Assembly (NCBI GenBank): GCA_038209745.1
Contig: JBBQXJ010000054.1
Span: 1 to 32,753 of the forward strand
Reading direction: 5' to 3'
Length of the DNA stretch: 32,753 bases
Source of the DNA: Verrucomicrobiota bacterium
GTDB taxonomy: Bacteria; Verrucomicrobiota; Verrucomicrobiia; Limisphaerales; CANJSG01
Shown one piece after another: positions 14,913 to 26,618 of this stretch. Made by a program: the position numbers and the translations under genes. Numbering within the stretch: the stretch's first letter is position 1; the number at the start of each line of letters is the position of its first letter. The notes under the pieces are model-generated. The model worked only from the letters and a program-made list of their open reading frames with translations. It searched no databases and was not told the origin of the DNA.

Positions 14913-15147
14913 GAAAGGGGACGTTCACGGTTCAAGGCAAACGTGCCAACTCCAAAAAGCCCGGTCCTTTCGAAAGACCCGCTCCCACCGTCGCACGCCG
15001 CCCTCCCCACGGAACGGAGCCGTCGCCACGAACGACACCACTGCGGATGTCGCCGCCGAAAATGGGAAAACCGGGTGTGGACGGTGATCGCCTTCGTCCG
15101 GTTCTTCTCCGCTAGGAAGCGAATGGTATCCACCCCCGATTCAATGG

Positions 15148-15249
15148 CCGCCACAGTCCCCGCACCGGGTGCTTGCGGTTGTCGCGAGCCATGGAGTAGG
15201 AATGCCTCTGTCGTGGGTTGGTGCCACTGGACGTTGCCACGCGTTTCAC
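15148..15249 (-). pseudogene. N-terminal 34-codon remnant of a tyrosine integrase related to 25270-26454
   Basis: VKRVATSSGTNPRQRHSYSMARDNRKHPVRGLWR versus VKRTETSGDTNSRRRHSYSKVLDNRKHPVRGLWR; homology ends abruptly and a stop follows at 15112-15114. Confidence 0.9.
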
Positions 15250-15329
15250 AAGGAAACGCTGTAGAAAAATGGGAAGCACCAACAACGGAGGACTGAAGAC
15301 GGCTATGTAAGTCCTTAGCGATCAGGGTT

Positions 15330-15368
15330 GCGCGAGTGGCGAAATGGCAGACGCGCCAGACTTAGGAT
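15330..15368 (+). repeat. attL: orphan 5' half of tRNA-Leu, a 39-bp perfect direct repeat of 26535-26573
   Basis: GCGCGAGTGGCGAAATGGCAGACGCGCCAGACTTAGGAT is identical in both places; identity stops 1 nt after the anticodon loop. Confidence 0.95.
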
Positions 15369-15491
15369 TCCATTTTTCGCGATTTCAAGAGGCTTCCATC
15401 CGTTGCTGAGACTTCAAGAGAATGCCCGTTTTTATTGGTCAAAATCAACTTCAAGCCCAGCCGTCGGCCCTTCCGGTGTTCGATGGCAAAG

Positions 15492-15511
15492 TGTAGCAAA
15501 AAGTGTAGCAC
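15492..15511 (+). promoter_or_regulatory. Putative integrase arm-type binding site, left end (tandem TGTAGCA)
   Basis: TGTAGCAAAAAGTGTAGCAC, identical to 26465-26484; 12-bp internal period. Confidence 0.75.
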
Positions 15512-15670
15512 GGACTGACGCGGGTTCTCGCTCCCTCTTCAGCCCGCCAGTGATGCCTTCCGGCGGACCCGCGCGCTCACGCGCTCTCCATGTAGGGACA
15601 AATCGGAGCAGGAACCGGCTGCGCGCCCCTGTGGCACCCGCGCTTCACACTTGAAACGTCGCACCAACAA

Positions 15671-16234
15671 TCAAACTGTCGCGCCGCTGCCAGTGGGGCT
15701 GAATTCTCCAGTCGCCTCCTTGTGACAAGGAAAAGGGCCGATGCTTGCGCGTTCGGTCCACCACTTCTTGGCCTTTGGAGCTTCTTCGCCTCGCTTCGCC
15801 GCATTTTTGTTCCGAAGCCCCAAAAGCCGGGCCTCGATCTCAGCCAGATGATTCAGGGCAGCCGCTTGCGAGCGGATCGTGTCGGGCGAAGGGCTCTCTT
15901 CTGAATTGATTCGCCGTTCAAGACTCGCTCGGATTAGGTCCACGAACCGAGCCGTCTCGCGGAAATGCAGCTCCTGTCGGTCCTTCAGCCATCGCTCTGA
16001 AATCGCTCCGCCTTCAACTGCGGGCGGCATCTGAGGAACCGGTGGCGGTCCAGGCAGCAGCCGCTCCAGCTCACGCTTGGCGTATTCTTGACGAAGCCTG
16101 CTCCAACTCTCAGTTCCGGCACGGCGCTCGACGGTTCCTCGATTGATCCCGTGACGGAGAGCGAGAGCGCAAAGGCTGCCTTTCCCGGTTACATAGTCAG
16201 ATCGGCACAAGGCCCACTTTTCCAGCGGTATCAT
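15671..16234 (-). CDS. HTH protein resembling phage terminase small subunit N-termini
   Basis: W...R.DYVTGKGSL..LA.RHGI...TV.RR...E.W pattern followed by helical segments; start set at ATG 16234. Confidence 0.55.
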   Translation of the reverse strand: MIPLEKWALCRSDYVTGKGSLCALALRHGINRGTVERRAGTESWSRLRQEYAKRELERLLPGPPPVPQMPPAVEGGAISERWLKDRQELHFRETARFVDLIRASLERRINSEESPSPDTIRSQAAALNHLAEIEARLLGLRNKNAAKRGEEAPKAKKWWTERASIGPFPCHKEATGEFSPTGSGATV

Positions 16235-16247
16235 ACAACAATAATGC

Positions 16248-16611
16248 CGCATCGATGCGACAAGCCAAACCAACACTCGTCTTCAGGGATGAATCGGGTT
16301 GCTCGCTCCCTATCCAATACGGTTCCAGCTCTCTATTCGTTCGGTCCCGTCTCGACCGAATCGGATGCGACACCGGTGTCGCCCGAGGCCGTTCCGGTTC
16401 CAGCTCTGTAGCCTTCTGGACAGGCCCTGCTCGAACTCCGTTCCGTTCCGGTTCCGAGCTGGTCCCGTCCAGTTCATTCCTGTTCCCATTCTGTGTCTGT
16501 CTCGGGTTCAAGGCAGGGTAAACCACAGCGCCACACTCACGGCTCGGCGGCTTTCACTTGTCGGGCCGGTTGTTGCCCGATGGGCGGCAGCTCTCAAGAG
16601 CGCCGCTTTTT
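16248..16611. other. Palindrome- and repeat-rich non-coding region, candidate replication origin
   Basis: Palindromes CGCATCGATGCG (16248-16259) and GCGACACCGGTGTCGC (16367-16382). Direct repeats CGGTTCCAGCTCT (16320, 16395) and CCGTTCCGGTTCC (16389, 16443). Hairpin plus T-run at 16584-16611. Adjacent to rep. Confidence 0.45.
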
Positions 16612-17109
16612 CGCAAGTGCCGAAAGGGCGTCTCTCCTCATGCGGTCCTGTTTGCGGATCACCATCCGCACGGACCGAGAGAGCGTCACCTGATCCACCG
16701 CGCCGTTGCGTTCCAGCGCATCTACGTCGTCCCGAATGGCGAACTTCGTGATGTAGGCGACTCCTTTCAGCAAGTCGCACACCGGTTGGATCTCTGCGGA
16801 ACCCTTGGTCTGGAGCTTCCATTCACCGTCAAGACGCAGGCAAAGGCTACGGGGGTCGGGAGCCTTGATGCCGCCGACCAAGTAATGGAAGTGCAAGCGA
16901 CCTCCTAAATCGCCGTATTCGCTGCGTAACGCGATCAAGAGACTGGAGTATGGCTGCCCTGTGATTTCGGCGATGCTCCGAAGATGCTGCCAAACCTGCC
17001 GATAGGAATGATTCGGACGGGGATTGGCCCCTTTGAAGGTCACGGCTCCATTGATGTCCCACCGGATTCGCTGCAACGCATACGCCTCCCCTGTAAAGGT
17101 CAGTTTCAC
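16594..17109 (-). CDS. Small HUH-superfamily rolling-circle replication initiator (Rep)
   Basis: Motif I-like AVTF, motif II EYGDLGGRLHFHYLV and motif III GVAYITK, in Rep order. GTG start at 17109 overlaps the upstream TGA (GTGA). Confidence 0.8.
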   Translation of the reverse strand: MKLTFTGEAYALQRIRWDINGAVTFKGANPRPNHSYRQVWQHLRSIAEITGQPYSSLLIALRSEYGDLGGRLHFHYLVGGIKAPDPRSLCLRLDGEWKLQTKGSAEIQPVCDLLKGVAYITKFAIRDDVDALERNGAVDQVTLSRSVRMVIRKQDRMRRDALSALAKKRRS

Positions 17110-17411
17110 GTTCCTTGCCCTCCGGCTCCGGGCGCTAAGGGCACCTTCACAATCTTCCCCCGGAGAATCGGCAATTCCCCTCCCATCAGGATGCCCGTCA
17201 CGGCGATGATGACAGTTTTGTCCTTCAGGGTTCCCCAACGTGCGTGAGCGTCTTCCTCGTCCAGCAACAGTTTGCAGACTCCTTGGATGGCGTGCTCTGC
17301 GGGTCGGCTCATGTCGGCCACCAAGAGCGAAGATTCCTTCCTTGCGGGCTGCGTCCTGCTGCGCGGCCAGTGGTGGAACTCCTCCACCATTACATGGAAA
17401 GCGCCGGTCAT
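17106..17411 (-). CDS. Small hypothetical protein (101 aa), possibly ssDNA-binding
   Basis: Translationally coupled on both sides (ATGA and GTGA overlaps); beta-strand-like pattern; function guessed from position only. Confidence 0.7.
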   Translation of the reverse strand: MTGAFHVMVEEFHHWPRSRTQPARKESSLLVADMSRPAEHAIQGVCKLLLDEEDAHARWGTLKDKTVIIAVTGILMGGELPILRGKIVKVPLAPGAGGQGT

Positions 17412-17698
17412 CGCTGCTCCTCCTCCGCCGCGCCCCTGGCTCTGCGTTCCTGAGTCGATTTCAGCGCCGCGCCGGCTGGTTCCTTCGCCAGCTCACCACG
17501 CAATGCTCGCGCGTCGAACTCCGCCAGCGAGCGCATATCGACAAAACAGCGCCCGGCGATGTTTACCAGGCGGATGTCGCCACGTTTTCCCATCCGCCAA
17601 AGCGTCGTGTCGGAGATGCCTCGATCTCGGCAAACAGCCGACGCGGTGCGGAGTTTGGTTTGTGGATGAGCAGAGAGACGCTCTTCTACGGGTTTCAT
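17408..17698 (-). CDS. Excisionase/AlpA-like winged-HTH DNA-binding protein
   Basis: LRTASAVCRDRGISDTTLWRMGKRGDIRLVNIAGRCFVD pattern. Confidence 0.8.
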   Translation of the reverse strand: MKPVEERLSAHPQTKLRTASAVCRDRGISDTTLWRMGKRGDIRLVNIAGRCFVDMRSLAEFDARALRGELAKEPAGAALKSTQERRARGAAEEEQR

Positions 17699-17728
17699 TT
17701 GGTGACATCCTACGACGGCACACAATTC

Positions 17729-17750
17729 CGTTCAGCGGAGCCGCTGAACG
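17729..17750. promoter_or_regulatory. Perfect 10-bp inverted repeat upstream of the xis-orf-rep unit (candidate operator)
   Basis: CGTTCAGCGG-AG-CCGCTGAACG in a 53-bp intergenic gap. Confidence 0.55.
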
Positions 17751-17751
17751 A

Positions 17752-18840
17752 TCACCCTTCTGCAAACATACGGCTCAACGCCTTGGACGCCTTCCCGGAG
17801 GCGACCAAGAGGGCGCTTTCTGAGCTGTATAGGGGCTTTCCTTCGTCCGGATAATCAACCGCCTCGATCAAAGAATGAGCCTCTTGGAGAGTATGTAGTT
17901 TTGTGAGTCTCAACGCTCCGAGCTGGCGAAGATGCTCTTGGGCACTGGCCACATTCTGCACCTTCAGCTCGGGGCCGGGTCTCTGCCGTTTGAGCCACCC
18001 GGAAAACTCCTTTTTGATCGTTTTGTCGGAGCGTCCCCAATTGACAATGAACTTCACCTCTTGATGGACAATCCCGTCCACCCACACACGTTCAAAGTTC
18101 TGGTCCCACTGCGCCCCCGCTGGCAGAGCCCCCCACCCTCCTTTGGCCTCAACGATGCCGGGCGTAAAAATATGCCCCGCAGCACTGGCGCGGACCATTT
18201 CCTCGACCTCGGCATCGCTCATTGGGCACGAATGTGCTTGGATGTACTTCTGGCGCGAAATCTCTACGGAATACTCGCGGCCAAGGGTCCAAATCCATTG
18301 CGCCAGCCGTTCGCGCGCCTCGAAGGCGTGAAACATGAAGAGGTCGAAGGCATTTTTCCGCACCCCCTCCGACTCGATTTCGAGCCACGGCTTCTCCGGG
18401 AACGGAGGAAAGACATGGAGGAACCATTTCCCGCTTCGTGCGTCCATTTCGGGAAAGGCTCCGCCGGCCTCTACCCGCAATTGCATCCATTCGGTCAATG
18501 AGTTGTCTGTTCCTTGGGTTCCGTCACCTCCGTCAGCGAAAACTTTCGCTTTGGTTCGCCAACTGCCGTCCCGAAGCGAACCGATGAACTCCCTGACACT
18601 GTCTTTGCAAGATGCGGCTGTTTTCAGGAGCGCCCTGGCCGCTTGCATGATCCTCGGATTCTTCTCCCGCCAAGCCTCCACTTTTTCACGGAACGCCTTC
18701 GACTCCCGCCCGAACTCATAGAGCAGGCAGGTCTCCAATTCGTCTTCGGGCACGCGGTCAAAGCGCCATTCAGGATCGGCGATGACAGCGGCAGCGGGCC
18801 TCAATTCCCGCCTCCCGGACTTTCTTTTTCCTCGCTTCAT
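17752..18840 (-). CDS. Hypothetical protein (362 aa), possible element regulator
   Basis: Long ORF; ATG 18840 overlaps the Mrr gene stop (ATGA); no recognised catalytic motif. Confidence 0.75.
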   Translation of the reverse strand: MKRGKRKSGRRELRPAAAVIADPEWRFDRVPEDELETCLLYEFGRESKAFREKVEAWREKNPRIMQAARALLKTAASCKDSVREFIGSLRDGSWRTKAKVFADGGDGTQGTDNSLTEWMQLRVEAGGAFPEMDARSGKWFLHVFPPFPEKPWLEIESEGVRKNAFDLFMFHAFEARERLAQWIWTLGREYSVEISRQKYIQAHSCPMSDAEVEEMVRASAAGHIFTPGIVEAKGGWGALPAGAQWDQNFERVWVDGIVHQEVKFIVNWGRSDKTIKKEFSGWLKRQRPGPELKVQNVASAQEHLRQLGALRLTKLHTLQEAHSLIEAVDYPDEGKPLYSSESALLVASGKASKALSRMFAEG

Positions 18841-19718
18841 AGTGGCAGCGTGAACCGGCAACGGGGATACGCGGAACAACCCCAGAACCGTTCTCCGACG
18901 TTTAGTCCTTTGCCTGCGGTTCTCAGCACCATGCGGGCTTCGCACTTGGGGCAGCGTTTCTCGGGATTGTTGAGATGGGTTTGAAGCTCCCCGTCATAGT
19001 CGAGGTCCAAGCTCGCCAGCAGAGAGAGGAGTTCCTTCTCGTCGAACAGCGTGACGCCGTTCCGTCCGGCCAATTCTTTCGCCTCTTGGGTGAAGCCGTT
19101 CAGCGTGACGAGCATTCCCGCGCCGACGCCATTGTCCTTCAATGCCCCGACGAATTCCCGCACCTGCCGCACGCCCACGTCCTGCCTTCGCCAGTGTTTG
19201 CATTGCACGGCCACGCGGTTGCCGCCCTTCTCCAGCATCAGGTCGATTCCTCCGTCAGGATGGGCTCCGCCCTTCCTCTCCACCGCATGGCCTTGCCGTC
19301 GAAAAACGTGCTGCATCAGCTTCTCGAACTGATACCAGTCCAAGGCCCGCAGCTTCTCTCGCCAGCGAGCTACGGTTGTCCCGCCTGTCTGCCCGTATCG
19401 GCCCAAGTCCCTCTGTGCGGGTTCTGGCAGAGTGGACCCTTCCCCCATGACGTTTCCCGAGCGAGGAGTCGGTCGGAGTGGCGCGAGGGAAGCAGAGTTG
19501 ATCGTTGCTTGCCTTCGGCGGGACCGGAACCACCAGACCGACAGGAGAACCACGAAGCCCAAACCCATGAGACCGAGCGTCACCACCACCAAGATCGAAA
19601 AGATCGAGTTCAACCGCTCGGCCAAGCCGCTGGTTCCCCCGGCCAAGGCAGCCAAGAGCGCGACTCCGGCAATCGCCTTGGCCGTGTCCTCCGCGTTGTT
19701 CCTTCGTCGTCTCTCCAT
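18837..19718 (-). CDS. Membrane-anchored Mrr-family restriction endonuclease with C-terminal topoisomerase-type C4 zinc ribbon
   Basis: N-terminal hydrophobic helices; LDWYQFEKL..., DGGIDL...AVQCKHW, VGVRQVREF, GFTQEA; CPKC...FWGCSAYPRC. Confidence 0.92.
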   Translation of the reverse strand: MERRRRNNAEDTAKAIAGVALLAALAGGTSGLAERLNSIFSILVVVTLGLMGLGFVVLLSVWWFRSRRRQATINSASLAPLRPTPRSGNVMGEGSTLPEPAQRDLGRYGQTGGTTVARWREKLRALDWYQFEKLMQHVFRRQGHAVERKGGAHPDGGIDLMLEKGGNRVAVQCKHWRRQDVGVRQVREFVGALKDNGVGAGMLVTLNGFTQEAKELAGRNGVTLFDEKELLSLLASLDLDYDGELQTHLNNPEKRCPKCEARMVLRTAGKGLNVGERFWGCSAYPRCRFTLPL

Positions 19719-19920
19719 GATCGCAGGCGGGGGAAACATCCCCAACCCGTCGTTTCATCGGCCGAAGGCCAATGGTATTTAGCGCGGATCGAAACACCCT
19801 TGGGCGGCTGGTTTGAGGCAGCCGAATCGGCTCAAGCAGGAATTCAGAAGCTCCGACCCATAATTGGCCACGCTGCTTGTGTGAAACAAACAAGGGGAAG
19901 GCCCACAAAAGACCAAGCAC

Positions 19921-20508
19921 ATGGACTCCTACTCAATGACCGTTCTGGTTGCCTTGTTCATAGGGCTGATGGTGGTGGTTGTGCAGCTCGACCGACTGCG
20001 CCGTGACAGGGCACACCAACACGAACAGACCCAAGGTCTTTTCCAGTCTTTCGTCCAAGCAGTGCAGGGAGCGCAATCGAGGAGCGAGGCGGTTTTACAG
20101 GAGAACGTGCTTCGCGTGGTTGCCTGCGTTGAAAGCCTTGGGAAACAGCTTTCCGAGAAGATCGAAACGGCGTCCCAAGAAACTCAGCGGATTGACCAAT
20201 CCATTGGGCAAAGCCAATTGGAACGAACGGAGTGGATGACCAACCGACTCCGCGAGGCACTTGGATCGGGCTTCAAATTAACCAGTGAAAGCTCCGAATC
20301 CCTTGGGAGCCTGCTCTCCGAAAAAATTGGGAAGGAAGCCGAATACATTCAACGGAGCCAGTCCGCGTTGGAGGCGCAGGGAGGAAAGATCATCAAGGCC
20401 ATCCACGAATCGGGCGAGCAAGTCACGGATGAACTCAAGGAAGGCACCAAAGCCATCGTTGATCTCAAAGCGAGCTTGGAAGAGTCCGTCAATTTTGAGC
20501 GGAGGTAG
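19921..20508 (+). CDS. Single-TM coiled-coil protein, first gene of the helicase operon
   Basis: N-terminal VLVALFIGLMVVVV followed by Q/E/S-rich helical heptads; 3-bp gap to the next ATG. Confidence 0.8.
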   Translation: MDSYSMTVLVALFIGLMVVVVQLDRLRRDRAHQHEQTQGLFQSFVQAVQGAQSRSEAVLQENVLRVVACVESLGKQLSEKIETASQETQRIDQSIGQSQLERTEWMTNRLREALGSGFKLTSESSESLGSLLSEKIGKEAEYIQRSQSALEAQGGKIIKAIHESGEQVTDELKEGTKAIVDLKASLEESVNFERR

Positions 20509-20511
20509 CAA

Positions 20512-21306
20512 ATGGCCGGAGTCTCCATTGTCTCCTATCTGCGTTATCTCCACGATGTAAACCGCAAGCTGCTCCAGCATGGCGGCCTTGAAAGCGTCCT
20601 CTACCGGAAACCGGCCAGCAAGAATCCCTGTTACCTCCAATTGGACCATCCTGATCCGGCCCGCCCACGGCACTTGCTTGCGACCTTGCGGCATATCGAG
20701 AACGCCGAAGCCAAAGGCTCCTTCTGGCGGCCATTGGTCGGGTTCGGTCTGATCGTCGGCCAGCTCGACACGCCCAAAGGCATCCGTCGCCTCTCCGCCC
20801 CATTGGCTTTTTGCGGTGCCAGTCTCGCGGAGGAGGAGGATCGGCCTTCCTCCGTCCAGATGATCCCGCAGTGGGATTCCATCACCCTCAACTACGACCT
20901 GTTGGCTTTTTTCCTGAAACAGGAAGCGGACGAGGAAGACACCAACGGAAGTTTGCTGCCCAAAGTCGGGCTCGACGCGAACACGCTTCGCGTTTTTACC
21001 GAAGCCGAAGAGGAGCTGGAACGTCACGCCTCCTCCGCGAATCCAGACCACCGTCTCACCCATGATGCTTTGTCGCAGACGATGAAATACATCCGCGACG
21101 GCGTGCCCGAGCTGCGCTCAATTGCTGTGCGCGGCGATCCCTATGACCATCGCCGTTTGGACAAGGAACTGGCCGAACTGACGCCACCGGTGTTCTTCGC
21201 GCATCGGTTCTTTTTCCTCGCGCCCTCGGCGGGCGAGCTGACCACGATGTCGGGACTCGCCACCCTGATCCGAAAGACTGAGAAGCCCAAGCCGAATGGA
21301 CTTTGA
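20512..21306 (+). CDS. Hypothetical protein, resembling the N-terminal (DUF4011-like) region of large SF1 helicases
   Basis: LVGFGLIVG...LSAPLAF...ITLNYDLL pattern; 11-bp overlap with the helicase start. Confidence 0.75.
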   Translation: MAGVSIVSYLRYLHDVNRKLLQHGGLESVLYRKPASKNPCYLQLDHPDPARPRHLLATLRHIENAEAKGSFWRPLVGFGLIVGQLDTPKGIRRLSAPLAFCGASLAEEEDRPSSVQMIPQWDSITLNYDLLAFFLKQEADEEDTNGSLLPKVGLDANTLRVFTEAEEELERHASSANPDHRLTHDALSQTMKYIRDGVPELRSIAVRGDPYDHRRLDKELAELTPPVFFAHRFFFLAPSAGELTTMSGLATLIRKTEKPKPNGL

Positions 21307-23923
21307 GAATTCACTGTTGGCGAAATTGTTCGAGGGCGTTCTGGAAGGGCGCTCCGTAGAATTCAAAACCGACCTCTTGCCGGTCGCAGAGGTCCAGAAG
21401 GCCATCGCGCTTCTGCCTATCAGCCTTTCGTCCAAACAAAAGCAGGCCGTCTCCCGCGCTTGGACTCACGAGGTTTCCTACATCCAAGGACCGCCTGGAA
21501 CCGGAAAATCGCACACGATCACGGCCATCATGTTGGCGGCGCTCTTCCTGAAAAAACGGGTGCTACTCGTCTCGCACAAAAAGCCCGCCATCGACGTGGT
21601 TTTCGACCGGCTCAAGGAATGTCTCGGCGAAGGCAGCGTCATCTACGCCTCCAACGACGTTGCCCAACGTCAGGCGATGCGCGGAACGCTGCAAAGCTGG
21701 CTGGATCGCGGGGACAATCTTCAATCATATGCGGAGCTGGATGCACTGCGCCGCGTTCGCAGCGAATACCGTGGGAAGGTGGAGCAGCTCAAGGCGGAGG
21801 TGGAAAAACTGGAAGGGTCGATCCGCAGCGCCCTACAGAGGGAACGGGACTTCTTTCACAGGCAGGAGCGGTTTCACAAAAACAGGACCGCGTATCTCAC
21901 CCGTTTTGAAACGCTTGGGGGCGATCTCAATCTTTCTTTGTCGGCCGATGTCGATCTAGCGAACGCGCTCCTTCCCGAGATCGAGCTTCAACTGGGCGAC
22001 GAACTGCACGCCAACGATGGCCGCATGAGCCGCAGTGAAACTCTGCGTCTCCGTCGCTTTTTCGTTGGCTTTGCCCGCCATTTTTTTGCCGATCACAAAC
22101 GGCTTGAACCTGGACTTGCGGCGACAAACTACGTCCGTGAACACCTCGACCTGACCTGTGAATTCCAGAGCGCCAGTGTCGCCCGTTCTCAAGTAAACCC
22201 GGACTTTCTCAGGGCAACACGAACCACCCTCGCGAAAAAGCAGCACCAACTGGAAGTGCAGCGTGCGGCCTTGGCCAAGGCGCACTTTGAGGCACATGTT
22301 GTGGGTAAGCTCCGCGAAACGGCTGATGATGTGCGGAAATTCGCCGGCATGATTCGCCACGCGAACCCTGCACTGATCGCGGAGAAGATGGAGGCCATCC
22401 TTTTCCCCAAAGTCATCGAGACACTGCCCCTATGGGTCGGGCAAATGCGCCACCTCGGCGAGTTTCTTCCGTTCGACGAGGATCTCTTCGATCTCATCAT
22501 CGTGGACGAGGCGTCCCAGGTGAACATCGCCGAAATCATCCCCGCGTTTTATCGGGGAAAACGCATCTGTGTCGTCGGTGACGACAAACAGCTCGGCCTG
22601 AACGCGGCGGGAGTGAACTTCGGATTCGGAGGGCAGTTCGAGGAACTCATCTGGCACAAACACTTCAATGGTTCCGGGGCGCTGTATTCACAGGCGGGCG
22701 AGCATTCGTTGTTGGTCAGCAAGCATTCGATCCTCGATTTTATCTGCTCAATGGACGACGGAAAGGTTCCAAAGACCACGCTTGACGAGCATTTCCGCAG
22801 CTTTCCGCAGCTCGCCTCCTTCACCAGTGAAGCGTTCTACAAAGCGGACGGCGGGCTTCGCCTGATGAAGGAAGTGCCGAAGAACCTGTCTTTGGAGTGC
22901 TTCAATTCGGTGGAAGTGGGCGGGGTCCGTGACGAGAAAACCAAGACGGTCGCCAACGAAATCGAGGAACTGTTGCGCTGGCTCACCAAGCTGATCCGTG
23001 GTCGGCACTATGAGCACGACCCGGCCTTGCGGGCGCATGGGTTCACCCACGAGCACCCGCCAACGCTCGGTGTGATCTCGTTCCTCACCAAACAGCGCGA
23101 CGCCATCCGGGAACGGGTTGAAGAGGTCTTTTCACCCGACGAAATCAGGAACAGCCATCTGATGATCGGCACGCCGGAAGATTTCCAAGGCAACGAACGG
23201 GACATCATCTTCATCACGCTGGGCCTGGACGGAACGAGCCGCTGGGGGAAAGGCCACTACGAGAACCCGAACCGGTTCAACGTCGCCACGAGCCGGGCCA
23301 TCCATTACACGCTGCTGATCTACGGCGGCATTCCGGCAAATGCCCGGCTCATCAAGTCCTACCTCGGCCATTTCGGCAAATCATGGCGAAGCAGAACTCC
23401 AGAGGAAGTGGCGAACGCCGCTTCGGCCAACGGGACGCCCCGGATCGGCGGCTATCGCTGGGATTGGAACCGGAAACTTCACCGGGAACTGTGCGAGTCC
23501 GAATTCGAGCACCGCGTCGCGGACGTGCTCGAACGGTTCGTGGAAGACCATGCGGGAAAGGCCAAGCTCCGCCTGTTCAACCAAGTGCAGGCCAGCCGCG
23601 CCTTGGGCGTCTCCAGTTGCGGGCAGAAGCGGCTCGATTTCGTCGTGCTGAACGAGGGCAACGGCGTTTCCGTGGCCGTCGAGGTGGACGGCCGGGACCA
23701 TTTCACCGAGGATGGACGTTCCTACTCCGAAGCCCATTTGGAGCGCGTGGACGTGCTCCGTCGGGCCGGATGGCGCATCATCCATATCCCCTACTATCTC
23801 TGGTGGCGGGATGGCTGGCTGGACGACACGGCCGACCCGGAGTTTTCGCGGGCGGTGTCAGAATTGTTCAGCGACTTGCGGGAAGCCTTGGAACTCCCGA
23901 GGAAAGGGCGCAATGGCTCCTGA
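21296..23923 (+). CDS. Upf1/DNA2-like SF1 helicase with coiled-coil insert and C-terminal Vsr/DUF559/MTES_1575-like endonuclease
   Basis: Helicase motifs IQGPPGTGKS, LLVSHKKPAID, IIVDEASQ, VVGDDKQL, LDEHFRS, TPEDFQGNERD and RFNVATSRA; nuclease motifs ESEFE..., RLDFVV, AVEVDG...H and LRRAGWRIIHI. Confidence 0.93.
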   Translation: MDFENSLLAKLFEGVLEGRSVEFKTDLLPVAEVQKAIALLPISLSSKQKQAVSRAWTHEVSYIQGPPGTGKSHTITAIMLAALFLKKRVLLVSHKKPAIDVVFDRLKECLGEGSVIYASNDVAQRQAMRGTLQSWLDRGDNLQSYAELDALRRVRSEYRGKVEQLKAEVEKLEGSIRSALQRERDFFHRQERFHKNRTAYLTRFETLGGDLNLSLSADVDLANALLPEIELQLGDELHANDGRMSRSETLRLRRFFVGFARHFFADHKRLEPGLAATNYVREHLDLTCEFQSASVARSQVNPDFLRATRTTLAKKQHQLEVQRAALAKAHFEAHVVGKLRETADDVRKFAGMIRHANPALIAEKMEAILFPKVIETLPLWVGQMRHLGEFLPFDEDLFDLIIVDEASQVNIAEIIPAFYRGKRICVVGDDKQLGLNAAGVNFGFGGQFEELIWHKHFNGSGALYSQAGEHSLLVSKHSILDFICSMDDGKVPKTTLDEHFRSFPQLASFTSEAFYKADGGLRLMKEVPKNLSLECFNSVEVGGVRDEKTKTVANEIEELLRWLTKLIRGRHYEHDPALRAHGFTHEHPPTLGVISFLTKQRDAIRERVEEVFSPDEIRNSHLMIGTPEDFQGNERDIIFITLGLDGTSRWGKGHYENPNRFNVATSRAIHYTLLIYGGIPANARLIKSYLGHFGKSWRSRTPEEVANAASANGTPRIGGYRWDWNRKLHRELCESEFEHRVADVLERFVEDHAGKAKLRLFNQVQASRALGVSSCGQKRLDFVVLNEGNGVSVAVEVDGRDHFTEDGRSYSEAHLERVDVLRRAGWRIIHIPYYLWWRDGWLDDTADPEFSRAVSELFSDLREALELPRKGRNGS

Positions 23924-24326
23924 AACGCTCAGGATTGTCCTTCTGGATGACGGGCCGGACCTGCTCGAACTTTACGAGGCCGTTATCCGAACCTATCCAT
24001 TTCCGACGCATCTCCAATTGTTCACGAACGGTCTTGAAGCATTGGAGGCGATGACACAAAAGCCTCCGCATCTACTCGTGATGGATTGGAATCGGGAATT
24101 CGACAACGGCGACATCATGCTGAAAGTCCTGGCGAAGCGGGGACTGACGTTTCCGGTGCTGGTTGCCTCCGGGTGGGCAACGGATGAACTCGTGCGCCAA
24201 AGCGTTGCCCCGTCTCAGACAGTCGCCCGGCTTCAAAAGCCCTTCGTATGCCAGGACTTCCTCGCCACCGTGGTCAGCCTGTTGTTCCAAGATCGGATCG
24301 CGAAACCGTTGATGCCGTCGGCTTGA
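23913..24326 (+). CDS. Single-domain response regulator (CheY-like receiver)
   Basis: IVLLDD, LLVMD (phospho-acceptor), VLVASG and LQKPF all intact; 11-bp overlap with the helicase stop. Confidence 0.88.
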   Translation: MAPETLRIVLLDDGPDLLELYEAVIRTYPFPTHLQLFTNGLEALEAMTQKPPHLLVMDWNREFDNGDIMLKVLAKRGLTFPVLVASGWATDELVRQSVAPSQTVARLQKPFVCQDFLATVVSLLFQDRIAKPLMPSA

Positions 24327-24462
24327 GCTTGGATTTGTCGCGAAGACATGCCGCTCACTGCAATCCCGAGTGGGTGGGTTTTTCTTGGCGCACATCGGTT
24401 TTCGCATGTATCTCTCTTTGGCGTCTGACTGGTTTTGCCGATCAAATGCCGGACAACAAACC

Positions 24463-24642
24463 ATGCCCTCAAAACGCCCCAAAATAGAATATCCGGCCGA
24501 GACCAAAGGGAGCCGGATCGCCGCCAAACTTCGGAAGGAAGCAAGCAAGCTGACGGCCGAAGAGCGGAAGTCCTATTTCGAGGAGGCGATGCAGATGATC
24601 TACGGGGGCACCAATGGCACGGTCCAAATCCGCAAGCCTTGA
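24463..24642 (+). CDS. Putative type II antitoxin (59 aa)
   Basis: Small charged ORF (MPSKRPKIEYPAETKGS...) directly upstream of and overlapping a PIN gene. Confidence 0.7.
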   Translation: MPSKRPKIEYPAETKGSRIAAKLRKEASKLTAEERKSYFEEAMQMIYGGTNGTVQIRKP

Positions 24643-25105
24643 CGTAAACGTCCTCTACGACTTGGCGTCGGAAGAGAAGTTCGCAAACGCATTTCTCAAC
24701 GAACTCCGCTTTCATGGGTGGATTTGCCGCGTTTCCCCCACGGCGATCCAAGAGATGTTTTTCCATCACAAGAGGAAAACGCCTCCGCAGTTTGCCTTGG
24801 CCGAAAAGACGCTTCGGAATCTCCAAGCGTGGAAGATTGGCCCTTTCGATCTGGTGCCGGTCGGTCATGGCATCACAGAACAGTTCGTTCGCAAGCTGAT
24901 CTACAAAGGCTTCTTGCCAGAAGACGAGGAAAACGACGGCTACATTCTGGCCGAAACGGCCTTGGTGGACATCCCGGTCCTTATCACTTCGGACAGCCAT
25001 CTGCTGAATATCCCACGCAAGAGCCTGTCTGCGGAGCTGGATGCATCCGACCTCCCCGACGTTCAAGTTTTCCGTCCTGACCAGTTCCTCAAAGTCATAG
25101 GCTAA
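24614..25105 (+). CDS. PIN-domain (VapC-like) ribonuclease toxin
   Basis: LDVNVL, VSPTAIQE, NDGYILAE and LITSDSHLL provide the acidic tetrad. Confidence 0.88.
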   Translation: MARSKSASLDVNVLYDLASEEKFANAFLNELRFHGWICRVSPTAIQEMFFHHKRKTPPQFALAEKTLRNLQAWKIGPFDLVPVGHGITEQFVRKLIYKGFLPEDEENDGYILAETALVDIPVLITSDSHLLNIPRKSLSAELDASDLPDVQVFRPDQFLKVIG

Positions 25106-25269
25106 TGGAAAAGACAAGCGTCAGCGACATAACAGGTTCTCTCTAAAAAATGGGTCCCATCCTCCGCCTGGTCTTTCGGGTTTCCCCCTCCCCCCCACCA
25201 CTCCGGCCGGACGGGTCCGAACCCAGGCACCGGACCCATGCCGGTTCCGTCCGCAGGGAAAAAACGGAT

Positions 25270-26454
25270 TCACCCTGCAACGGCGGAAGGAAACGGAACC
25301 ACCGTCGGGCCGAAGTTGAGCCGGGCGGCTTGGGCTTGGGCGTGTTCGTTGCTTAGATGGCCATAGACCTTGCCGATCAACACGCCGCCGTCCTTGTGGC
25401 CCACCCAGCGGGCAATGGTCATGTAGTCAATCCCGCTCATCACCGCGAACGAGATGAAGTGATGACGGCAGTCGTGGAAGCCGAAGCCGTCCAGCTTCGC
25501 CGCCGTCCGCGCCAGCTTCATGGATTCCCGGAAGGTGTGGGCGGCTTGGTCCTTCTCCCCCCGTTGCGGACTGGGAAAGAGCCATTCGGAGTCCGGCGCG
25601 CGTCGGGCGTGCATGTCGCGCAAGTGCGCCTGCAAAGGCGGGCTCAAATCGACGTGCCGCGCCTCCCGGTTCTTCGTGTCGCCGTCCGCGCCGATGGTCA
25701 CGAGTCGCCCGTTGAAATCGACGTCCGCCCAACCCACGCGCAAGGCTTCCTGCTCCCGTGCCCCGGACAGGGAGAGAAACCGGAGGTAGTCCGCCAGTTG
25801 CCGCCCGTTCTTGGACGCTTCCAGACCGGCCGCGCAGATGCGTTCGATTTCCGCCAAGGTGAAAAGCCGCCGGGATTTCTTCTCCACCCGCTGCCAAGCA
25901 ACGTCCTCGGTCGGAAGCGTCTTCAAATACCCGTCCCGCTTCGCCGCCTTGAGGACGTGGCGGAGACAAACAAGGGCGAGGTTGCATGTCCTGGGCGAGC
26001 GTCGGGCGCGAAGGGTGTTCAGAGCGCCCAGAACATGGCTCGGCTTAATCTTGTCGAGCCGCAGATGCCCCAAGGCGACGCGCCAGCGTTCGTAATGGGT
26101 CTTCTCGGTGACGAGGGTGTCCCGCTTCTTCCCCGTGCCCGCCAGCAAGGGCAAATACGTATCCGTCAGGTATTCGTCGAACGTCGGGGAGCGCCCGACA
26201 TGCCGCAGACGGTTCTCGTCCCGCTCGATGAGCAGCTTCCGAAGCTCCGTTTGGCCTTCAGAGGCGGTTGTCGCGGCCAGAGGCACCCAAGACAACTTCT
26301 TGCGCCCCGCTTCATCCTCGACCGTCACGCGGGCGTAGAACGAGCCATTGCGCCTCCAGAGCCCGCGAACCGGGTGCTTGCGGTTGTCGAGAACCTTGGA
26401 GTAGGAATGCCTCCGCCGTGAGTTGGTGTCACCGGACGTTTCAGTGCGTTTCAC
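25270..26454 (-). CDS. Tyrosine recombinase / integrase
   Basis: Catalytic set SGAR(R), TKN(K), HDCR(HxxR), VGH(H), KVY(Y). GTG start at 26454 is conserved in the remnant copy. Confidence 0.96.
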   Translation of the reverse strand: MKRTETSGDTNSRRRHSYSKVLDNRKHPVRGLWRRNGSFYARVTVEDEAGRKKLSWVPLAATTASEGQTELRKLLIERDENRLRHVGRSPTFDEYLTDTYLPLLAGTGKKRDTLVTEKTHYERWRVALGHLRLDKIKPSHVLGALNTLRARRSPRTCNLALVCLRHVLKAAKRDGYLKTLPTEDVAWQRVEKKSRRLFTLAEIERICAAGLEASKNGRQLADYLRFLSLSGAREQEALRVGWADVDFNGRLVTIGADGDTKNREARHVDLSPPLQAHLRDMHARRAPDSEWLFPSPQRGEKDQAAHTFRESMKLARTAAKLDGFGFHDCRHHFISFAVMSGIDYMTIARWVGHKDGGVLIGKVYGHLSNEHAQAQAARLNFGPTVVPFPSAVAG

Positions 26455-26464
26455 AAGGCAACAC

Positions 26465-26484
26465 TGTAGCAAAAAGTGTAGCAC
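26465..26484 (+). promoter_or_regulatory. Putative integrase arm-type binding site, right end, just upstream of the int start
   Basis: Identical to 15492-15511. Confidence 0.75.
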
Positions 26485-26534
26485 CGACAACGGAGGACTG
26501 AAAACGGCTATGTAAGTCCTTAGCAATCAGGGTT

Positions 26535-26618
26535 GCGCGAGTGGCGAAATGGCAGACGCGCCAGACTTAGGATCTGGTTCCGCAAGGAGTGGAGGTTCAA
26601 GTCCTCTCTCGCGCACCA
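26535..26618 (+). tRNA. tRNA-Leu (anticodon TAG) with encoded CCA; its 5' 39 bp form attR
   Basis: Acceptor stem GCGCGAG/CTCGCGC, anticodon arm CCAGA-CTTAGGA-TCTGG, long variable arm, T arm GGAGG-TTCAAGT-CCTCT, ACCA end. Confidence 0.98.

Follow-up and report, generated by a model that had tools for sequence, protein, structure and literature searches.

A mobile three-gene cassette encoding a putative membrane-tethered helicase-nuclease on an integrative element of a Verrucomicrobiota bacterium

The 32,753-nt contig JBBQXJ010000054.1 of a Verrucomicrobiota bacterium (assembly GCA_038209745.1), hereafter referred to as the window, carries four co-oriented genes, A to D, within an integrative element (Table 1). 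Genes A and B are separated by a gap of 3 bp, and both B and C and C and D overlap by 11 bp. An earlier note on this DNA, made from the sequence alone, had described the same orientation and spacing, which match the open reading frame (ORF) coordinates throughout, and had read the four genes as a candidate anti-phage operon. Judged by gene order in related loci, the conserved unit is made up of three genes, A-B-C, which form a horizontally mobile cassette, and not of four. The locus as a whole is best explained, in our opinion and with modest confidence, as a mobile A-B-C cassette encoding a membrane-tethered helicase-nuclease, probably involved in defence. The enzyme would be of the same kind as Hhe and ProA, single-gene helicase-nucleases which are known or annotated as anti-phage proteins. 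The split enzyme, the DUF4011-like partner and the membrane subunit of the earlier reading are thus retained, while the receiver domain encoded by gene D is no longer regarded as a part of the system.

Related loci were collected by using C as query, which yielded 4 genome loci, and a B alignment, which yielded 25 metagenome loci. Five locus pairs are identical among these 29 loci, and 25 loci are counted as distinct. The IMG/VR locus L043 was left out of every count. The A-B-C order was found again in 25 distinct unrelated contigs, and the features of the cassette are therefore not attributable to chance. In tblastn searches, C follows B in 25/29 loci; the remaining four contigs stop inside B, so that the association holds in 25/25 loci where the DNA continues. 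Gene A was detected by tblastn with the window protein in 16/29 loci, and an A-like ORF is located directly 5' of B in 27 of the 29 split loci, the other two having at most 120 nt of upstream DNA. The order of the three genes and the short gaps between them are invariant, while the flanking genes differ at every locus. ORFs in the flanks were called heuristically, as the longest ORF or by G+C content at third codon positions (GC3), so that some small or atypical genes may have escaped detection.

Two copies of the cassette are decayed. In L013 (557-1072), gene A carries one in-frame stop. In L027 (1691-2182), an in-frame join links B, up to about residue 134, to C, starting near residue 278. 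This join is either an internal deletion or a chimeric contig.

B and C are the two halves of a protein that in most relatives is a single chain of approximately 1,100 residues. The window locus is classified as a split form because B and C are colinear with these single-chain relatives: the fused proteins range from about 1,080 to 1,160 residues, and B and C, encoded by two genes, total 1,139 residues. A B profile run against 1.84 billion representative proteins gave 119 matches, 45 of which are at least 1,000 residues long and carry the B-like domain at residues 1-260. The view, already expressed in the earlier note, that the locus is a split version of a single-gene helicase-nuclease is supported by these 45 proteins. 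In the ten full-length fused proteins that were scanned, the B-like domain is followed by AAA_11, AAA_12 and RAP/MTES_1575 domains. Two shorter profile matches (653 and 609 residues) feature the first helicase domain only. Eight mid-length profile hits were inspected as candidate natural A-B fusions, and all turned out to be truncated fused B-C forms.

Fused proteins are numerous. For the fused protein P0088, 633 relatives were found at E ≤ 1e-20, of which the best 120 are nearly all full-length. These 120 bear only generic names, namely 'AAA domain-containing protein', 'RAP domain-containing protein' and 'superfamily I DNA and/or RNA helicase/very-short-patch-repair endonuclease'. The labels of their sources are Hydrogenobacter, Hydrogenobaculum, Persephonella, Fervidobacterium, Ignavibacteriaceae, Flavobacterium, Nitrospirae and Planctomycetota. 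Overall, the family comprises at least about 120 full-length protein clusters, distributed in Aquificota, Thermotogota, Bacteroidota/Ignavibacteria, Nitrospirota, Planctomycetota and Verrucomicrobiota. By these homology searches, the family is a widespread, unnamed two-component module, which consists of three genes when the enzyme is split.

Fused and split forms may be found side by side. Six genomes of another bacterial class, the class holding L001, carry the module. The enzyme is fused in G873 and G605, and also in G822, where the gene is cut by the contig end; it is split in G617, G675 and G577. This class therefore holds both forms, as illustrated by the fused loci L074 (G873) and L075 (G605) and the split loci L076 (G617) and L077 (G675), which implies either that fission or fusion of B and C occurred more than once, or that the genes were exchanged horizontally. 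The locus L043 (4017-7073) encodes a 1,018-residue helicase-nuclease that shares the motor and the nuclease of the family and differs in its N-terminal domain; no membrane gene lies upstream.

C is predicted to be a Upf1-like helicase of superfamily 1B (SF1B) joined to a Vsr/RAP-type nuclease, with all catalytic motifs intact. The AAA_11 (69.8 bits) and AAA_12 (50.9 bits) families of Pfam both match above cut-off. In the nuclease region, RAP matches above its cut-off (33.3 versus 24.2 bits), and MTES_1575 below (30.6 versus 38.2 bits). The Walker A, DEASQ, GD-KQL, QGNERD and VATSRA motifs are invariant in an alignment of 13 C orthologues, as are the D/E-V-D/H residues of the nuclease. The AlphaFold model of C (predicted local distance difference test score, pLDDT, 87; predicted template modelling score, pTM, 0.88) features an all-helical insert of about 230 residues (residues 122-352), which includes helices of 61 and 51 residues. 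The motif alignment, the model and the RAP score agree with the earlier description of C as a protein with intact Upf1-like SF1 motifs, a long helical insert and a Vsr-like nuclease. Sequence matches in the PDB are Sen1, Upf1, IGHMBP2 and DNA2, and the top hits of a Foldseek search with the whole model are Aquarius, SETX, UPF1, IGHMBP2, Sen1 and DNA2, with E values down to 5.8e-17.

A separate group of plasmid proteins (hits H2-H40) was also noticed. These are 'AAA domain-containing proteins', encoded mainly by Acinetobacter and Variovorax plasmids, which match about 50% of the query at 24-29% identity and share with C the second helicase domain and the nuclease only. They look like another uncharacterised helicase-nuclease family carried by mobilisable plasmids.

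B is less easily classified. The protein has 59 homologues, all unnamed and none with Pfam domains, and B itself matches no Pfam, NCBIfam or PADLOC model. The earlier note had called B DUF4011-like. The Pfam DUF4011 model (PF13195) does not match B at E ≤ 10, and matches 3 of 22 family members weakly (best E 0.0022). A reference for the DUF4011 region was made from 7 of 10 Hhe-type loci, L037 and L038 having been removed by a motif filter, and L039 for being nearly the same as L035. When B was compared with this region by hhalign, the probability was 16% (E 0.0016) with a profile of 22 sequences and 82% (E 1.1e-5), over B residues 49-135, with a profile of 91 sequences that included the N-domains of fused proteins. 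We regard B, with moderate confidence, as a remote DUF4011 relative. The structural model of B (pLDDT 75.6) has no usable match in the PDB (Foldseek best E 0.12, VIA best Z 2.9), which does not show that the fold is new. Similarly, a B profile search of PDB sequences gave no matches at E ≤ 10, and the ESM Atlas gave no usable match.

The third conserved protein, A, carries a single N-terminal transmembrane (TM) helix and, after it, an Arg-rich stretch; a helical spacer then leads to a conserved C-terminal motif, about 25 residues long, which ends in SLEESVNF in the window copy. A is predicted to be a single-pass membrane protein, the Arg-rich stretch of which would put both the spacer and the C-terminal motif on the cytoplasmic side. 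In an alignment of 22 orthologues, only the TM helix with the Arg-rich stretch and the last 25 residues or so (ending in SLEESVKF) are conserved. The middle region is rich in insertions and deletions, and the length of the aligned proteins consequently ranges from 75 residues in L001 to 195 residues in the window. No Pfam, NCBIfam or PADLOC-DB family matches A, aside from weak similarities to the ZorA tail (E ~1e-3), and the ESM Atlas returned unnamed clusters only (best score 0.91, low recognition). In L024 (1347-1844), about 33 residues of A are duplicated, so that the C-terminal motif occurs twice in tandem; it seems to be modular in nature.

In several phyla, an A-type gene directly precedes the enzyme, whether this is split or fused. 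In the IMG/VR locus L042, the fused 1,086-residue gene is preceded by an ORF of 115-124 residues with a TM helix and a helical region. An A-like ORF is present upstream in 4/4 fused loci (L042, L046, L047 and L051) and in 2 further split loci (L048 and L049). In each of the six genomes of the other class, the upstream ORF (75-201 residues) starts with a TM helix and has the same type of motif at its C-terminus. A profile built from 22 A proteins was run on 397 ORFs from six loci outside the profile; it placed the six upstream ORFs at ranks 1-5 and 8, with E values of 4e-8, 1e-3, 0.054, 0.11, 0.48 and 1.2. The membrane-anchored helical subunit proposed in the earlier note is borne out by the A-like genes kept upstream of B in the split loci and present at fused loci.

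Rather than a tether, A might be a small membrane protein with no link to the enzyme, or might regulate a toxic nuclease in the manner of an inhibitor or an antitoxin. Other systems are known in which a small partner restrains a helicase-nuclease effector, and A is poorly conserved outside its two ends. A soluble inhibitor, however, would not need a TM helix, which is retained in every A orthologue, even in the 75-residue minimal form of L001; nor does the invariant A-B-C order with short gaps favour an unrelated gene or a mere regulator. We consider this explanation quite improbable.

In contrast to A, B and C, gene D is peculiar to the window locus. D encodes a stand-alone receiver domain, and its frame is open from 23712, with an internal ATG at 23913. 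The earlier note had counted D as the fourth component and had proposed a possible phospho-switch; the corresponding explanation is that of a four-component system, in which D would couple membrane sensing by A to the helicase-nuclease. D matches Response_reg (PF00072) at 35.3 bits, versus a cut-off of 30.2 bits, and carries D12, D13, D58, S86 and K109, which we take to be the receiver consensus positions that form the phospho-acceptor pocket; the DD/D/S/K pocket would hence be intact. The 11-bp overlap suggests that D is translationally coupled to C and co-translated with it here. Moreover, D and the junction spanning C, D and the downstream DNA are present, identical in sequence, in a contig from a second run of the same study. 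All these features would fit a four-component system. Against this, tblastn detected D in 0/29 related loci, and none of the 10 distinct loci with at least 400 nt past C encodes a receiver domain. No Response_reg match was found among the scanned downstream ORFs, including those of four extended loci of the other class. No paralogue of D is encoded elsewhere in the genome, and a collection of 5.8 billion protein clusters contains no other relative at E ≤ 1e-5. Pfam scans, which covered island ORFs only, gave no match to HisKA, HATPase_c or Hpt. Because D is missing from all 29 loci and has neither a paralogue nor another relative, it is classified, on comparative grounds, as a locus-specific addition that is not part of the conserved cassette. 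The four-part layout and the phospho-switch are accordingly not supported as features of the conserved system, and a system with D as an integral component seems very unlikely. D could at most modulate the system locally.

The proteins were compared with known systems by using PADLOC-DB v2, NCBIfam r20 and Pfam as reference sets. There was no full match in PADLOC-DB v2 or NCBIfam r20, in line with the earlier remark that the layout corresponds to no named system. Moreover, no description of the A-B-C cassette was found in the literature searched, subscription papers and preprint supplements being outside the search. In PADLOC-DB v2, partial matches to the helicase core of C were obtained with PDC-S37 (126 bits), MkoA (123 bits), MkoC (95 bits) and Hhe (58 bits). 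In NCBIfam r20, C scored 132.7 bits with ProA (cut-off 1,500) and 92.8 bits with Hhe (cut-off 2,000). Fused relatives do no better than C, as their scores range from 59.7 to 93.8 bits with Hhe and from 106 to 135 bits with ProA.

Hhe (HheA) is reportedly a single-gene anti-phage system, said to have been described by Gao et al. 2020. In Hhe (NF042953, PDLC02194), an N-terminal DUF4011-type domain precedes a Upf1-like helicase (AAA_11/AAA_12, with an insert) and a nuclease of the Vsr/MTES_1575 type. The modules of the A-B-C enzyme follow the same order, B being the putative remote counterpart of the DUF4011-type domain. In contrast, Hhe is one chain of about 1,800-1,900 residues, whereas the cassette enzyme consists of 264 and 875 residues, or of about 1,100 residues when fused. 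In addition, Hhe has a DUF4011 domain, whereas B falls below the Pfam DUF4011 threshold, and no DUF3320 was detected in the cassette. The membrane-anchor gene is a further difference, as an A-like ORF was seen upstream of 0/10 Hhe-type giant genes, 8 of which have less than 500 nt of upstream DNA. According to a preprint, Hhe is a single helicase-nuclease gene, the candidate triggers of which are T7 DNA-metabolism genes (bioRxiv 10.1101/2024.10.10.617714).

ProA (NF058533, 'anti-phage protein ProA') and PDC-S37 are the best defence profiles for C and the fused forms, and match the helicase core and part of the nuclease. The two models span 1,903 and 1,550 positions, respectively, and were compared with the cassette by profile score. 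The Mokosh proteins MkoA and MkoC match the SF1 helicase core only (95-123 bits), over C residues 395-673, which correspond to the second RecA-like domain. Mokosh uses a PLD nuclease, and the cassette shows neither a PLD nuclease domain in Pfam scans nor an MkoB partner. Zorya resembles the cassette in concept, as it encodes a helicase/nuclease effector along with a membrane component whose long helical tail extends into the cytoplasm. However, A matches the tail region of the ZorA profile weakly (E ~1e-3, 15 bits), a likeness of helical composition, and possesses a single TM helix but no channel domain of the MotA/ExbB type. No ZorB/MotB partner and no OmpA/MotB family occur in the operon, and the effectors also differ, as Zorya combines Snf2 and Mrr, whereas the cassette combines an SF1B helicase with a Vsr-type nuclease. 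Taken together, the cassette is probably an undescribed relative of the single-gene anti-phage helicase-nucleases of the Hhe/ProA kind.

The most probable role of the cassette is defence against phages or plasmids. This assignment is suggested by its kinship to Hhe and ProA, by its patchy distribution and by its variable flanks, which often contain defence, toxin-antitoxin or mobile-element genes. The module was found in 1/61 relatives, 1/401 genomes of the phylum of the window and 6/301 genomes of the class holding L001, the six being those in which the match includes the N-terminal domain. A complete triad of TerY, PP2C phosphatase and Ser-Thr kinase-OB genes (PADLOC 312, 91 and 274 bits) lies directly upstream of A-B-C, on the opposite strand, in L023 (1658-5636). 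The flanks of other loci include a type II methyltransferase (L004), MNT/HEPN (L015), Phd (L009), ParE/Phd (L075), a GajB-like helicase (L018), and integrase/primase or NERD/PrimPol elements (L016 and L014).

Several observations weigh against this interpretation, or against parts of it. Defence, toxin-antitoxin or mobile-element genes are neighbours in about half of the loci, the rest being flanked by housekeeping genes. For instance, L074 is flanked by RlmN, adenylate kinase and ExbBD genes, and L076 by CTP synthase, SpoU and DnaG genes, while nothing defence-like was found in the scanned flanks of L020 and L025. A plasmid collection held no full-length relative of the cassette enzyme, and a phage collection held no match to it at all. 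The link between B and DUF4011 is a remote one, given the gap between the narrow (16%) and the wide (82%) profile results. Similarly, sequence homology between the A proteins of split and fused-adjacent loci is significant in 2/6 cases only; in the other 4/6, homology would follow from position and architecture.

Alternatively, the cassette may encode an accessory DNA or RNA enzyme unrelated to defence, which could act in membrane-associated repair, replication restart or RNA surveillance, by analogy with DNA2, AddAB or Sen1, or serve the mobile element itself, for example in the processing or exclusion of transferred DNA. Among solved structures, the closest folds are those of eukaryotic RNA/DNA surveillance helicases (Aquarius, SETX, UPF1, IGHMBP2 and DNA2), several loci are set among housekeeping genes, such as those for UvrC, DnaG and CTP synthase, and the family occurs in cultured thermophiles under generic names. 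A distribution as patchy as that found is, however, unlike that of a housekeeping function; flanks that differ at every locus, and that often include toxin-antitoxin, restriction-modification or defence genes and integrases, point the same way, and the nearest profile relatives are defence proteins. A role outside defence thus appears unlikely.

If the cassette is a defence module, its components may work together as follows. Oriented by its TM helix and Arg-rich stretch, A would extend its spacer and C-terminal helix into the cytoplasm, where the C-terminal helix would dock onto the B/C enzyme. The flexible spacer, the length of which varies, would then hold B/C at the inner face of the membrane. 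Once there, the 5'-3' motor may load on foreign nucleic acid, such as entering or replicating phage or plasmid DNA, which the nuclease would cut. In an alternative version, A might keep the enzyme inactive until infection releases B/C.

The A-B-C cassette of the window resides on a discrete 11.2-kb integrative element inserted at a tRNA-Leu gene. The element is delimited by the tRNA-Leu gene and the adjacent integrase gene, a direct repeat, a drop in G+C content and an assembled contig of exactly the same extent. The direct repeat is 222 nt long, and its two copies (15147-15368 and 26352-26573) are 88% identical. The G+C content is 0.55-0.61 within the island and about 0.64-0.66 outside. One assembled Logan contig of 11,217 nt, derived from a run of public DNA reads (X1), covers exactly 15339-26555. 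In the same run, the depth of the island contig is 18.2, versus 3.5-6.4 for the flanking contigs. The higher depth may reflect the presence of the island in several strains or hosts of the sample, or in more than one copy, for instance in an excised form.

Table 1 Features of the island and of the four-gene locus in the window.
Feature	Coordinates	Strand	Size	Basis	Remark
Left copy of direct repeat	15147-15368	.	222 nt	Repeat search, family D1	Left end of island
ORF without family	15671-16276	-		Library scans	No Pfam, NCBIfam or PADLOC family
ORF without family	16594-17238	-		Library scans	No Pfam, NCBIfam or PADLOC family
ORF without family	17408-17725	-		Library scans	No Pfam, NCBIfam or PADLOC family
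ORF without family	17752-18945	-		Library scans	No Pfam, NCBIfam or PADLOC family
Mrr-type (type IV) restriction endonuclease	18837-19745	-		Mrr_cat 104.9 bits, Zn_ribbon_Top1 40.4 bits, PADLOC PDC-S02 and mREase_IV	
Gene A	19921-20508	+	195 aa	ORF list	Putative single-pass membrane anchor
Gene B	20512-21306	+	264 aa	ORF list	Putative DUF4011-like domain protein
Gene C	21296-23923	+	875 aa	ORF list, Pfam	Predicted Upf1-like SF1B helicase and RAP/MTES_1575/Vsr-type PD-(D/E)XK nuclease
Gene D	23913-24326	+	137 aa	Response_reg	Stand-alone receiver (REC) domain
Candidate toxin-antitoxin pair	24463-25105	+	59 aa and 163 aa		59-aa ORF (24463-24642) overlapping 163-aa PIN-like ORF (24614-25105)
Tyrosine integrase of island	25270-26526	-		Phage_integrase 63 bits	Adjoins tRNA-Leu
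tRNA-Leu	26535-26618	+		ARAGORN	Attachment site, right end of island

The island is located on the 5' side of the tRNA-Leu gene, which is unusual. The repeat is longer than a short att core, as it spans about 175 nt of the 5' end of the integrase gene in addition to the 5' part of the tRNA-Leu gene. Its left copy seems to have been left behind by a previous integration of a related element at this tRNA gene.

In the earlier note, the cassette was placed in an integrative element, between an Mrr nuclease and a PIN toxin-antitoxin pair. The element and the Mrr nuclease are confirmed; the Mrr protein has a TM segment at its N-terminus and a Zn ribbon at its C-terminus, and its gene is divergent from A. 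The PIN assignment is less secure, as the match is weak (E 0.037, 15.1 bits versus a cut-off of 23.6 bits), and no family matched the overlapping 59-residue ORF. A motif scan of the interval 19500-25300 revealed no promoter-like sites and 6 terminator-like sites, versus 8.2 expected.

These results correct the reading of the locus, as the receiver domain lies outside the conserved machine. At every locus examined, the compact version of the helicase-nuclease comes with a dedicated single-pass membrane partner, whether the enzyme is encoded by one gene or by two. The presence of this partner in both forms points to the membrane as the site where the enzyme would act or be restrained. A more specific idea, which we put forward tentatively and deem unlikely as it stands, is that of a minimal immune module linking membrane to nuclease, in which A and the helicase-nuclease would form an analogue of Zorya with one helix. 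In this view, A would detect or mark the site at which the phage genome enters, or a perturbation of the envelope, and its conserved C-terminal helix would recruit or release the enzyme, which would destroy the incoming nucleic acid; such a module would be widespread, and the receiver would add phosphorylation control on this island. B would define a domain with no solved structural relative, and the family as a whole may offer a simple, testable two- or three-gene system for the coupling of a cytoplasmic nuclease motor to the cell envelope.

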